Origin: Aeromicrobium sp.
GTDB taxonomy: Bacteria > Bacteroidota > Bacteroidia > Flavobacteriales > Flavobacteriaceae
Reading direction: 5' to 3'
Length of the DNA: 64,000 nucleotides
Assembly (NCBI GenBank): GCA_964219345.1
Contig: CAXPPN010000024.1
Span: forward strand, 33,554-97,553
The stretch's first letter is position 1; the number at the start of each line of letters is the position of its first letter. Of this stretch, positions 53,440-56,136 are shown piece by piece. Under the pieces are notes generated by a model, which was not told the origin of the DNA, ran no database searches, and saw only the letters and a program-made list of their open reading frames with translations. A program made the translations under genes and the position numbers.

Positions 53440-54846
53440 CTAAATGTTTTCTGCAAGTTTAATGGCTTTTGTAAGTGCCCCAAGTTTGTTATATACTTCT
53501 TGTAATTCGTTGTCAGAGTTCGATTTTGATACGATTCCAGCTCCTGCTTGCCAATGCAATTGTTGATTTTTGCTCAAAAATGTTCGAATCATAATCGCGT
53601 GATTATAATTGCCCTTAAAATCCATAAACCCAATAGCACCACCATAAAACCCACGACTAGTTTTTTCGTATTTTTCAATAAGCTCCATAGCTTTATATTT
53701 TGGTGCTCCCGATAGTGTTCCAGCGGGAAAAGTGTCAGCTACAATTTGAATGGTTGATGTTTTTTCTCGTACTGTTCCAATGACTTTACTTACTAAATGT
53801 ATCACATGCGAAAAAAATTGTATTTCTCTATAATTTTCAACAGTTACATCTGTACAATGCCTACTGAGGTCGTTTCTAGCCAAGTCAACTAGCATCACAT
53901 GTTCACTGTTTTCCTTTTCATCTTTTACTAATTTTTGCGCCAATTCAGTGTCTTTCATATCATCTCCTGTACGAGCAAAAGTTCCTGCAATGGGGTGAAT
54001 TTCTGCTTTTTTGTTTTTTACAACAAGTTGTGCCTCTGGTGAGCTTCCAAAAATTTTGAAATTTCCATAATCGAAATAAAACAAATAGGGAGATGGGTTA
54101 ATGCTACGCAAGGCGCGGTAGACATTAAAATCATCACCTTTGAAATCTTGTTGAAATTTTCTTGATAATACCAACTGAAAAACATCACCACGCTGACAAT
54201 GTGTTTTTGCAATTTCTACATGTTTTTTAAACTCTTCATCGGATAGGTTTGAATCAATTTTATTGATGGTTTCAAAATCATATAATGCAAAACGATCCAT
54301 TGTAATGATATGATGTAATTCATTTATATTGCTTTCTTTTTCATAACAATGAGAAAAAATATAAGCTTCATTTTTGAAGTGATTAACAGCAATAATGTTC
54401 TGATAAACAGCATATTGTATTTCAGGGATTTCTATAGAATTTTCTTTGGATGCGATATCAATGGTTTCAAAATACTTTACCGCATCATATGAAGTATATC
54501 CAAAAAGACCATTGTTTATAAACTTGAAATCTTCATCATTTTCTATTTCAAATTGTGTTGTAAATTGATTTATTTCGCTAGTAACTTCATTGTTTTCAAC
54601 CCTGTAACTTTCTTTCGTTGAATCGGGAAACACTTTTGTTAAAGTATTTCCATGAATTTTGATAGAGGCCATTGGGTTGCAACATATATAAGAAAAACTA
54701 TTATCATTTCCGTGATAGTCACTACTTTCTAAGAGCATGCTATTTGGAAATTTATCCCTTATTTTCAAATAAATACTTACTGGCGAGAGTGTATCTGCTA
54801 GTATTTTTTTGTAATGCGTCTTTATTTTGTATGTTTTTTTCATCAT
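53440..54846 (-). CDS. trpE: anthranilate synthase component I
   Basis: LLESS N-terminal Trp-feedback motif and the chorismate-binding C-terminus (GAIGF, GAGIV). The ATGATG start at 54846 is preferred because the track TTG start lies inside the attenuator hairpin. Confidence 0.93.
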   Translation of the reverse strand: MMKKTYKIKTHYKKILADTLSPVSIYLKIRDKFPNSMLLESSDYHGNDNSFSYICCNPMASIKIHGNTLTKVFPDSTKESYRVENNEVTSEINQFTTQFEIENDEDFKFINNGLFGYTSYDAVKYFETIDIASKENSIEIPEIQYAVYQNIIAVNHFKNEAYIFSHCYEKESNINELHHIITMDRFALYDFETINKIDSNLSDEEFKKHVEIAKTHCQRGDVFQLVLSRKFQQDFKGDDFNVYRALRSINPSPYLFYFDYGNFKIFGSSPEAQLVVKNKKAEIHPIAGTFARTGDDMKDTELAQKLVKDEKENSEHVMLVDLARNDLSRHCTDVTVENYREIQFFSHVIHLVSKVIGTVREKTSTIQIVADTFPAGTLSGAPKYKAMELIEKYEKTSRGFYGGAIGFMDFKGNYNHAIMIRTFLSKNQQLHWQAGAGIVSKSNSDNELQEVYNKLGALTKAIKLAENI

Positions 54847-54878
54847 AAAAAAAAGGCTTGTCGTGAAAGACAAGCCTT
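54847..54878 (-). terminator. trp attenuator terminator hairpin
   Basis: Minus strand AAGGCTTGTC-TTTCAC-GACAAGCCTT: a 10-bp perfect stem followed by a run of 8 T in total (last 2 stem bases plus 6 more). It abuts the trpE ATG. Confidence 0.75.
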
Positions 54879-54901
54879 GATATTTTAATATACGAGGTGA
54901 T

Positions 54902-54958
54902 TCACGACTTTTGAGATCGAGTTGTCCACCACCATGTATTTTGATTTTTTCTATTCAT
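54902..54958 (-). CDS. trpL: trp operon leader peptide (18 aa, MNRKNQNTWWWTTRSQKS)
   Basis: Short ORF with three consecutive TGG codons, placed between a -7 box and the terminator hairpin upstream of trpE. It is absent from the ORF track because it is under 60 aa. Confidence 0.72.
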   Translation of the reverse strand: MNRKNQNTWWWTTRSQKS

Positions 54959-54967
54959 TTTGAAATT

Positions 54968-54975
54968 CAAATATA
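54968..54975 (-). promoter_or_regulatory. Candidate -7 promoter box (TATATTTG) for the trp leader/operon
   Basis: TAnnTTTG match on the minus strand, 10 nt upstream of the leader ATG. Confidence 0.35.
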
Positions 54976-55009
54976 AGTTACTTTTCTTAGTCTACAAATA
55001 TTTTTTTAA

Positions 55010-55573
55010 TTAAAATGATAGATTAACGTTAAGGTCAAATTCGTCATAAATAGCACGATCTTTTAAGTCATCAAAAAAGCTAGCAGATCCATATTTTATG
55101 TCATACTTAGTGCGATCAATTTTCAAATCAGCAATAGCAGAATTTTCTAAAACTTGCATCTTGAATTTCACTTTGTTTGTAATACCTTTGATTGTTAAAT
55201 CAGCGTTTACTATATAATTTGTACCGTTTTGTTTAAGTGAAGTAAAAACCAAACTTGCTGTTTTATGCTTTTCAACACCAAAGAAATCATCATCCTTTAG
55301 GTGTCCATCTAACTTCTTTTTGTAATCGCCTTCTAAATCTGTAGTATTTATTGTGCTCATATCAATGACGAATTTTCCACCAACAAGCACGTTATTTTTA
55401 AAAGTAAGTGATCCTTTTTTTATCATTATAGTGCCTTCATGCTGTCCTGTAACTTTGTAGCCAGTCCATTTTACAACACTACTTTCTGTATTGACTTCTT
55501 TAGTGATTTGAGTTGTAAATGCGAAAAGTGTTAAAGAAATAAAAGCAACAAAAAATAGTTTAAATAATCTCAT
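55010..55573 (-). CDS. YceI family periplasmic protein
   Basis: Signal peptide MRLFKLFFVAF, a YceI-like beta-barrel pattern, and KGITNKV. Confidence 0.8.
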   Translation of the reverse strand: MRLFKLFFVAFISLTLFAFTTQITKEVNTESSVVKWTGYKVTGQHEGTIMIKKGSLTFKNNVLVGGKFVIDMSTINTTDLEGDYKKKLDGHLKDDDFFGVEKHKTASLVFTSLKQNGTNYIVNADLTIKGITNKVKFKMQVLENSAIADLKIDRTKYDIKYGSASFFDDLKDRAIYDEFDLNVNLSF

Positions 55574-55659
55574 AGTTTTGAATTTAATGTGTGATTTACA
55601 AAGTTCTAAATTTAATTTTAAAAATTGTAATTTAGCGCTTAATATTTTGTTAATTTTTG

Positions 55660-56136
55660 ATGAGATCATTCATATATTTTATTCTAACATTATTTGTTTT
55701 AGGTTGTTCACCTAACCAGAACAAACTTGAAGTGTATGATTTTCAGGGTATTAAAAAATTTTTACATCAAAAGAACAACAAAACTTATGTTATAAATTTC
55801 TGGGCTACCTGGTGTGCGCCTTGCATAAAAGAATTGCCTTATTTTGAGCAAATTCAAGAAAAATATAAAAAAGATGTAGAGGTTATCCTAATTAGTTTGG
55901 ATTTTCCAAGTCAGTATGAAACCAAATTAATTCCTTTTTTTGAAAAAGGACAATTAAAATCTAAAGTTATCGTTTTGGATGATGTAGATATGAATTCTTG
56001 GATTCCAAAAATTGACTCAAATTGGGATGGTGCCATTCCGGTAACATTGATTTACAATAGTAAAAACCGTCAATTTTATCCACAATCATTTACCTATGAT
56101 GAATTAGCTATCGAAGTAGAAAAATTTTTAAAATAA
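55660..56136 (+). CDS. TlpA-like thiol:disulfide oxidoreductase lipoprotein
   Basis: Lipobox LGCSPN and thioredoxin active site FWATWCAPC. Confidence 0.8.
   Translation: MRSFIYFILTLFVLGCSPNQNKLEVYDFQGIKKFLHQKNNKTYVINFWATWCAPCIKELPYFEQIQEKYKKDVEVILISLDFPSQYETKLIPFFEKGQLKSKVIVLDDVDMNSWIPKIDSNWDGAIPVTLIYNSKNRQFYPQSFTYDELAIEVEKFLK

Follow-up and report, generated by a model that had tools for sequence, protein, structure and literature searches.

The window analyzed here, a 64,000-nucleotide (nt) stretch of a Flavobacteriaceae genome (assembly GCA_964219345.1, contig CAXPPN010000024.1), carries on its minus strand, directly upstream of trpE, what is very probably a ribosome-mediated transcription attenuator of the trp operon belonging to the Bacteroid-trp leader family (Rfam RF01692). 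The element is of an already known kind, the family having been known since 2010, and represents one more orthologous copy. A Trp leader-peptide attenuator had been proposed at this place in an initial annotation made from the DNA letters alone, and both the comparative evidence given below and the match to the published RF01692 prediction bear this proposal out. We also describe a candidate antiterminator in which a box near the leader stop codon pairs with the loop of the terminator.

The leader open reading frame (ORF) reads ATG AAT AGA AAA AAT CAA AAT ACA TGG TGG TGG ACA ACT CGA TCT CAA AAG TCG TGA. The terminator hairpin, AAGGCTTGTC (54878-54869) / TTTCAC / GACAAGCCTT (54862-54853), starts 23 nt past the leader stop codon, and its run of eight T (54854-54847) directly adjoins the trpE ATG at 54846. 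The 8-mer GTCGTGAA (54908-54901) is the exact reverse complement of TTCACGAC (54867-54860). The Trp-rich ORF, the hairpin with its T-run abutting trpE, and the two perfectly complementary 8-mers had all been described in the initial annotation, and each lies on the minus strand where it had been placed.

Relation to the Bacteroid-trp leader family

In a permissive Rfam scan of 2 kb (E up to 10), RF01692 was the sole meaningful match, located at 54975-54869 on the minus strand and covering the full model (positions 1-131) with 44.7 bits (E = 0.0016). The leader looks unannotated because this score falls below the RF01692 gathering score of 49 bits. Its earlier description as unannotated is thus correct for a default Rfam scan, which stays silent, but not for the family itself. 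Eleven of the 20 relatives scanned reach the gathering score (49.9-79.5 bits), including locus L003 of the window's own clade, and an alignment with 73% mean column identity (A1) joins these threshold-passing relatives to the window continuously. Judged by its sequence, the window copy is a homologue of RF01692 with a near-miss score. Its alignment to the 3' half of the model contains several deletions, a possible reason for the missing bits.

The features that define the family are present in the window. The leader lies upstream of trpE in a member of the Bacteroidetes, its short ORF contains three UGG codons (at least two being expected), and its hairpin includes the UGG codons through the helices GGUGGU:AUCACC and AUAC:GUAU, which are in the register of the model helix. 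Weinberg et al. (2010, Genome Biol 11:R31; PMC2864571, Additional file 1) reported the motif upstream of trpE/trpB, presumed it to be a Trp peptide leader, and described "a loosely conserved hairpin" as its structure (PMC2864571); its Rfam title is "Bacteroidete tryptophan peptide leader RNA." The prediction of 2010 is that such leaders turn on Trp synthesis genes under Trp shortage. Later flavobacterial papers mention the motif or leader-peptide attenuation of amino-acid operons (PMC6414381; PMC9723704); among them, a transcriptomic study of F. psychrophilum speaks of "strong clues" of leader-peptide attenuation upstream of amino-acid operons (PMC9723704).

Conservation of the leader among relatives

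Relatives were collected by a TrpE protein scan with one genome per species, which yielded 80 Flavobacteriaceae loci whose TrpE proteins are 69-97% identical; the leader analyses below comprise 75 sequences. The nearest relatives are Flavobacteriaceae metagenome-assembled genomes, some labelled Formosa sp. A WWW-encoding leader ORF followed by a terminator was found upstream of trpE in 79 of the 80 loci, and the 80th (L011), which is cut by a contig end, keeps the box and the terminator. The comparison of orthologous trpE upstream regions suggested in the initial annotation therefore shows the Trp-run ORF and the hairpin to be conserved. In 74 loci the ORF starts with ATG, encodes 14-20 amino acids with WWW (once WWC), and lies at most 350 nt from trpE; a typical leader peptide is MNTILNxTWWWNSRN.... 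The leader ORF of L004 starts with GTG. In four loci that seemingly had no leader, it lies together with its terminator 400-800 nt upstream of trpE, on the far side of an inserted ORF.

The distance from the ATG to the first Trp codon is 24 nt in 74 of 75 sequences, and an intrinsic terminator with a T-run after its stem is found in all 75. The terminator hairpin has 18 invariant columns in alignment A1 and 5 more that are at least 90% conserved, and the spacer around it varies freely. A YceI gene lies upstream in only 44 of the 80 loci, and the leader element thus belongs to trpE rather than to the upstream gene.

The primary sequence of the terminator, GGCTTGTC-ATTCAC-GACAAGCC (window 54853-54878; A1 columns 105-129), is almost invariant across genera. 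No second partner is known for the middle of the stem (CUU/AAG), despite its invariance.

Three predicted folds of the leader RNA

The 135-nt leader RNA of the window folds better than all of 200 shuffled versions (z = -3.06). In both its minimum free energy (MFE) structure and its centroid, the Thr and Trp codons (AUAC..GGUGGU) pair with AUCACC..GUAU just past the box, forming a hairpin that we term P1; short inner pairs of P1 take up 5 of the 8 box bases. When the relatives were folded one by one, the Trp codons paired with a downstream segment in 64 of 75. P1 was assessed sequence by sequence because the Trp-codon hairpin is too variable in length to be aligned by sequence; RNAalifold run on a MAFFT alignment of the 75 leaders recovered the terminator only. 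On alignment A1, RNAalifold gave 9 terminator pairs with one compensatory change from GC to AU (L026 and L062) and 14 one-sided G-U changes.

The third fold appears when a stalled ribosome is modeled. With the ribosome on any of the three Trp codons of the window and the RNA transcribed through base 3 of the terminator 3' arm, the MFE structure is a GUCGUGAA:UUCACGAC helix around a small local hairpin. A ribosome placed at the stop codon leaves only the terminator. We carried out the comparison of energies suggested in the initial annotation: over the full window segment the antiterminator fold has -12.8 kcal/mol and the terminator-containing MFE fold -15.6 kcal/mol, and the stalled snapshot favors the antiterminator. 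In E. coli, too, the trp antiterminator is less stable than the alternative fold. For the whole set of 75 leaders, with the ribosome stalled on the second Trp codon, at least five box:loop pairs are present in every MFE structure, against 14% when the upstream sequence is shuffled, and the mean energy is -12.5 kcal/mol, against -6.3 +/- 2.7 kcal/mol for the shuffled controls. In silico, the leader thus has what a leader-peptide attenuator needs, namely, a terminator between ORF and gene and a fold that excludes the terminator upon stalling.

Modeled together, the box:loop helix and the lower terminator stem would make an H-type pseudoknot whose third loop has zero nt, which is presumably impossible sterically. 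Under known limits on loop length, the antiterminator and the terminator would therefore fully exclude each other. The two-state scheme of the initial annotation, in which the stop-codon box either is masked or captures the terminator loop, holds insofar as this antiterminator is conserved and covaries, but it omits P1, which pairs 5 of the 8 box bases.

A candidate antiterminator between the stop-codon box and the terminator loop

The core of the antiterminator helix, UCGUGA:UCACGA, pairs in 73-75 of the 75 relatives. Overall, 85% of the box:loop cells are paired, against 21-50% when the partner columns are slid. The outer pairs of the window's 8-bp helix are found in 14 and 49 of the 75 relatives; 8 bp is the long end of the range, and the conserved core measures 6 bp. 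The perfect 8-mer pairing of the initial annotation is therefore right in its core, with six of the eight pairs covarying among 12 lineages (see below), but not conserved over its full length.

The position of the box is fixed as well. The first base of the first Trp codon precedes the C of CGTGA by 27-29 nt in 75 of 75 sequences, while the leader stop codon shifts: it is the box's own TGA in 41 sequences, lies in frame after the box in 23, and upstream of the box in 11. This fixed spacing despite a shifting stop codon indicates that the box is conserved as RNA, always near the stop. Given standard footprint sizes, a ribosome stalled on the Trp codons would end just short of the box, and a terminating ribosome would cover it.

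For a more distant comparison, we used 12 Bacteroidetes lineages from the flanked seed alignment of Weinberg et al. (supplementary file 14). Boxes and partners of different sequence pair in several of these lineages (Table 1). The mean energy of cognate box:terminator apex pairings is -11.3 kcal/mol, against -7.3 kcal/mol for non-cognate ones, and none of 20,000 permutations was as good. In the curated 12-row alignment, whose pairing register was chosen by hand, 90.6% of the cells pair, and two-sided changes affect 6 of the 8 pairs and 13 cells, values that are reached by 1 and 0 of 500 shuffles, respectively.

Table 1. Stop-codon boxes and their terminator-loop partners in the window and in distant lineages
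Source	Box	Partner	Pairing
Window	GUCGUGAA	UUCACGAC	8 bp
Bacteroides vulgatus	GUCGUAAG	CUUACGAC	8 bp
Parabacteroides distasonis	GUCGUAAG	CUUGCGGC	8 bp, 2 G-U
AAPD01000009	GCCGUAAA	UUAACGGC	one mismatch
Marine metagenome clade (JCVI)	GUCGAU	AUCGAC	6 bp
Microscilla	UCUGUGAA	UUCACAGG	8 bp, 1 G-U
Cytophaga hutchinsonii	UCGUGAAC	GUUCACGG	8 bp, 1 G-U

It is tempting to assume that the family as a whole uses a non-classical antiterminator, in which a stop-adjacent box captures the terminator loop and then the top of the 3' arm, leaving the 5' arm free, and that this pairing has been conserved with compensatory changes across Flavobacteriia, Bacteroidia, and Cytophagia. We regard this generalization as evenly balanced between true and false. 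A literature search found no description of an antiterminator formed by a stop-codon box and a terminator loop.

Proposed mechanism

The analysis itself yielded the sequence features and their conservation, the constant spacing, the covarying pairs, and the predicted energies. What we infer from them is that the leader ORF is translated, that ribosomes stall on it, how their footprints lie, that loop pairing has a kinetic head start, and how the operon is regulated as a result. Transcription probably begins ~5 nt before the ATG of the 18-codon leader ORF, at a sigma-A-type promoter (TTTG, 19 nt, TATATTTG). On a leader without a ribosome, the Trp codons and those preceding them would pair past the box in P1, tying up 5 of the 8 box bases, so that the terminator would form and transcription would end in the T-run before trpE. 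With plentiful Trp-tRNA, a translating ribosome would reach the stop codon, in the box or a few bases from it, and its footprint would mask the box; again the terminator would form and transcription would end. With scarce Trp-tRNA, the ribosome would stall at WWW, opening P1 and exposing the box 17-19 nt past the Trp run. The exposed box would then pair with the terminator loop as soon as it emerges, and next with bases 1-3 of the 3' arm, so that the terminator could not nucleate and RNA polymerase would read through into trpEGDCFB.

Promoter and initiation of trpE

In 71 of 75 sequences, a gap of 5-22 nt separates a TAnnTTTG box from the leader ATG, and TTG or TTTG lies 18-19 nt upstream of this -7 box in the first 12 sequences listed. 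In F. psychrophilum, the sigma-A box TAnnTTTG is found at -12 to -5 (PMC9723704), which places the predicted transcription start of the window leader near 54963 and gives a 5' untranslated region (UTR) of ~5 nt. The -7 box named in the initial annotation is indeed present, although the gap to the ATG is 9 nt and not 10. A nearly leaderless leader mRNA, which had been deduced from it, is a reasonable prediction for the window's clade, but for relatives with gaps of 12-22 nt the predicted UTRs are 7-17 nt long. A sigma-70 promoter scan found nothing at the leader, the sigma-70 model not being relevant to Bacteroidetes promoters.

The distance from the terminator to the trpE ATG ranges from 2 to 146 nt in the relatives, so that a T-run touching the trpE ATG is specific to the clade and lies outside the conserved mechanism. 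In addition, Bacteroidetes are reported to initiate translation without Shine-Dalgarno sequences (PMC6847099), and the T-run therefore poses no special initiation problem. The question raised in the initial annotation, of how trpE translation could begin next to a U-tract, can be dropped on both grounds. One may speculate that in the window's clade the re-formed hairpin additionally dampens trpE translation.

trpE has two consecutive ATG codons (ATGATGAAAAAAACA) at window positions 54843-54846, and TrpE of several relatives begins with MK(K/T). This suggests that the second ATG (54843) may be the true start, in which case the spacing from T-run to start codon grows by 3 nt.

Points against the attenuator and alternative explanations

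Several observations weigh against the attenuator as we describe it. The whole-window Rfam scan at gathering thresholds gave no match, the window copy being sub-threshold, and our literature search found no experimental study of trp attenuation in Bacteroidetes. Coupling of transcription to translation is, to our knowledge, still undemonstrated in this phylum, whose members are without Shine-Dalgarno sequences. The antiterminator helix measures 6-8 bp, which is short, and has a large loop to close; as its stability is below that of the terminator, it must act kinetically. In the window, CACCU of the 5' arm pairs with AGG..UG, but a classical capture of the 5' arm by upstream sequence, resembling the 2:3 pairing, was rejected as a candidate, with 6.3 pairs across the family against 5.2 in shuffles. 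Box and loop are invariant within Flavobacteriaceae, so that the compensatory changes the initial annotation proposed to look for exist, as regards box and loop, across the 12 distant lineages but not inside that family, and the covariation comes only from this small set. Within the set, ABCM01000008 and BABB01001584 pair weakly, the box regions of AAOG01000004 and AANA01000002 have another partner, namely the loop together with the last part of the 5' arm (a strong pairing in the former, a weak one of 5 bp in the latter), and the Microscilla box lies ~20 nt upstream of the stop codon, where a stop-anchored box window misses it.

Four other explanations of the conserved leader were considered, one of which is compatible with attenuation. 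The terminated leader RNA (~110 nt) could also act in trans as a small RNA, as the trp attenuator RNA rnTrpL of Sinorhizobium meliloti reportedly does. Such a role would explain why the hairpin is nearly invariant in sequence at TrpE identities of 69-97%, with a freely varying spacer around it and a compensatory stem change in only two sequences. Much of this invariance is already explained by the attenuator, whose loop and stem top must match the box, and since the identified trp genes (trpE-G-D-C-F-B) all lie in one operon, no trp target in trans suggests itself; we consider the additional role improbable. A mainly translational hairpin, which would hide the trpE initiation region from 6 nt upstream until translation of the leader opens it, would fit the window's clade (L001-L009), in which the hairpin ends 5-13 nt before the trpE ATG, and the sensitivity of Bacteroidetes initiation to mRNA structure that has been reported (PMC6847099). 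In other relatives, however, as many as 146 nt separate the hairpin from trpE, and in four loci this interval measures 400-800 nt and contains an inserted ORF. With such variable distances, start-codon occlusion cannot be the conserved function; the T-run that follows the stem in 75 of 75 sequences also speaks for termination, and we rate this explanation as very unlikely.

It is hardly credible that the hairpin is simply the terminator of the YceI gene and the WWW ORF a coincidence. The hairpin does lie downstream of that gene on the same strand and could end read-through from it too, but trpE is preceded by the leader and its terminator in 79 of 80 loci and a YceI gene is upstream in only 44, the stretch from the YceI stop codon to the leader contains a conserved promoter-like -33/-7 pair, and both the ATG-to-Trp spacing and the box position are fixed. 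Control by a protein or a tRNA without a translating ribosome (TRAP-like or T-box-like) merits just as little credence. TRAP and T-box are the usual trp controls in Firmicutes, and a protein might, in principle, bind the invariant hairpin. Even at E values up to 10, however, the 2-kb Rfam scan picked up neither a T-box nor any other riboswitch, and the leader from 54958 to 54847 contains one UAG and no GAG, where TRAP binding takes about 9-11 (G/U)AG repeats, 2-3 nt apart and overlapping the antiterminator. In-frame Trp codons at a fixed codon position and a stop codon always beside the box point instead to a ribosome, as the attenuator requires.

Gene context and further observations

The coordinates of the features are collected in Table 2. 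The operon runs in the order trpE-G-D-C-F-B from 54846 down to 49306 on the minus strand, with Pfam matches to GATase, Glycos_transf_3, IGPS, PRAI, and PALP downstream of trpE. A gene with a YceI domain (55010-55669, minus strand) is the immediate upstream neighbor of the trp leader and has the orientation of trpE.

Table 2. Features of the trp leader region (window coordinates)
Feature	Position	Strand	Remarks
Leader peptide ORF MNRKNQNTWWWTTRSQKS + TGA	54902..54958	-	ATG 54958-54956, TGA 54904-54902, 18 codons
TGG TGG TGG, presumed sensing site	54926..54934	-	codons 9-11, in frame; TGGTGGTG invariant in alignment A1
Box GUCGUGAA, candidate antiterminator 5' strand, overlapping leader stop codon	54901..54908	-	GTGA invariant
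Candidate antiterminator 3' strand UUCACGAC	54860..54867	-	five loop bases and terminator 3' arm bases 1-3
Intrinsic terminator (attenuator)	54847..54878	-	10-bp stem, 6-nt loop, eight T, -14.9 kcal/mol
P1, Trp-codon hairpin (equivalent of 1:2 hairpin)	54890..54939	-	MFE and centroid, -12.3 kcal/mol; RF01692 helix
trpE, anthranilate synthase component I	53440..54846	-	Pfam Chorismate_bind, Anth_synt_I_N; first gene of operon
Candidate sigma-A -7 box TATATTTG (TAnnTTTG)	54968..54975	-	9 nt before leader ATG
Candidate -33 element TTTG	54995..54998	-	19 nt upstream of -7 box

A terminator scan of a 900-nt stretch found 2 sites, against 0.2 expected, both being the terminator hairpin of the leader, read on its two strands. 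The terminator hairpin was rejected as a repeated element, its sequence occurring once only in the window. TGGTGGTGG occurs four times in the window, against 0.28 expected; the other three sites were discarded as leaders, being a Gly run in a long ORF, the antisense of another, and a site inside trpB.

The association of a YceI gene with the trp leader is moderately conserved and has no obvious functional link. A tmRNA gene (L021:1-233) and a tRNA gene (L039:769-841) lie ~1.5-2 kb upstream of the leader in two other loci, and the upstream neighborhood thus varies.

The four inserted ORFs between attenuator and trpE are located at L027:~2090-2484, L065:~1770-2500, L068:~2140-2500, and L073:~2135-2500. 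Their product, which carries the motif KKWNR(E/D/N)WKINLINDFNP..W, looks GIY-YIG-like, and a GC hairpin (TTTCCGCCTTCGCGGAAA or similar) is found 3' of the ORF. From its sequence, the ORF with its hairpin looks like a small mobile insertion into the spacer between leader and trpE.

An inverted repeat, CTGAA-N(3-9)-TT(C/A)AG, lies ~60 nt or less from the trpE start in 12 of the 80 relatives (L011, L016, L020, L025, L028, L038, L040, L045, L051, L056, L058, and L071); the window is without it. In ~10 of these loci it takes the form ACTGAA-N5-6-TTCAGCA, downstream of the attenuator and ending 2-6 nt before the trpE ATG. The repeat may be a second control element, either an operator or an RNA hairpin. 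In L016, the only one of the twelve loci that was scanned, there was no Rfam match at gathering thresholds.

Significance

As an element, the window leader is of minor interest, being an orthologous copy of a family in Rfam since 2010 that controls an ordinary trp operon. The Rfam threshold misses the shortened copies of its clade (44.7 vs 49 bits), and annotation pipelines consequently under-call the family in marine Flavobacteriaceae. What is added here is a comparative test and an antiterminator model ready for mutation, both absent from the original description. The model can be used to ask whether ribosome-coupled attenuation works in Bacteroidetes, which initiate without Shine-Dalgarno sequences. 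If confirmed by experiment, this would be the first case of coupled transcription-translation attenuation in a phylum without Shine-Dalgarno sequences, and on a nearly leaderless mRNA. The near-invariant sequence of the hairpin leaves room for a further function, for example in trans.

Comparison with known systems

The predicted choice between terminator and antiterminator in response to Trp is shared with the Bacillus TRAP and T-box systems. There the sensor is a protein on (G/U)AG repeats or an uncharged tRNA, and the window leader bears neither signature. A Trp leader-peptide attenuator upstream of trpE(G) is also present in Sinorhizobium meliloti (trpL/rnTrpL), where the released attenuator RNA and the leader peptide are both said to have proven functions in trans.

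The logic predicted here is also that of trpL of E. coli (RF00513), with its leader peptide containing tandem Trp codons, a Trp-codon hairpin, alternative folds, and read-through on stalling. There is no similarity in sequence or model; the 2-kb Rfam scan gave no match to the RF00513 Trp_leader model at E up to 10. E. coli trpL has two Trp codons and an antiterminator that targets the terminator 5' arm (region 3). The window leader, in contrast, has three Trp codons, is expected to lack a Shine-Dalgarno sequence, and probably has a 5' UTR of ~5 nt; its candidate antiterminator is directed at the terminator loop and at the uppermost bases of the 3' arm.

With RF01692 the window shares the location upstream of trpE in Bacteroidetes, a short ORF with a UGG run, a hairpin between the UGG codons and a downstream CC-containing segment, and a terminator 5' arm, AAGGCUUGUC, that is identical to the model consensus. 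The published description of the family consists of a hairpin and a presumed leader peptide, to which the present analysis adds the stop-codon box and the predicted antiterminator with the terminator loop.

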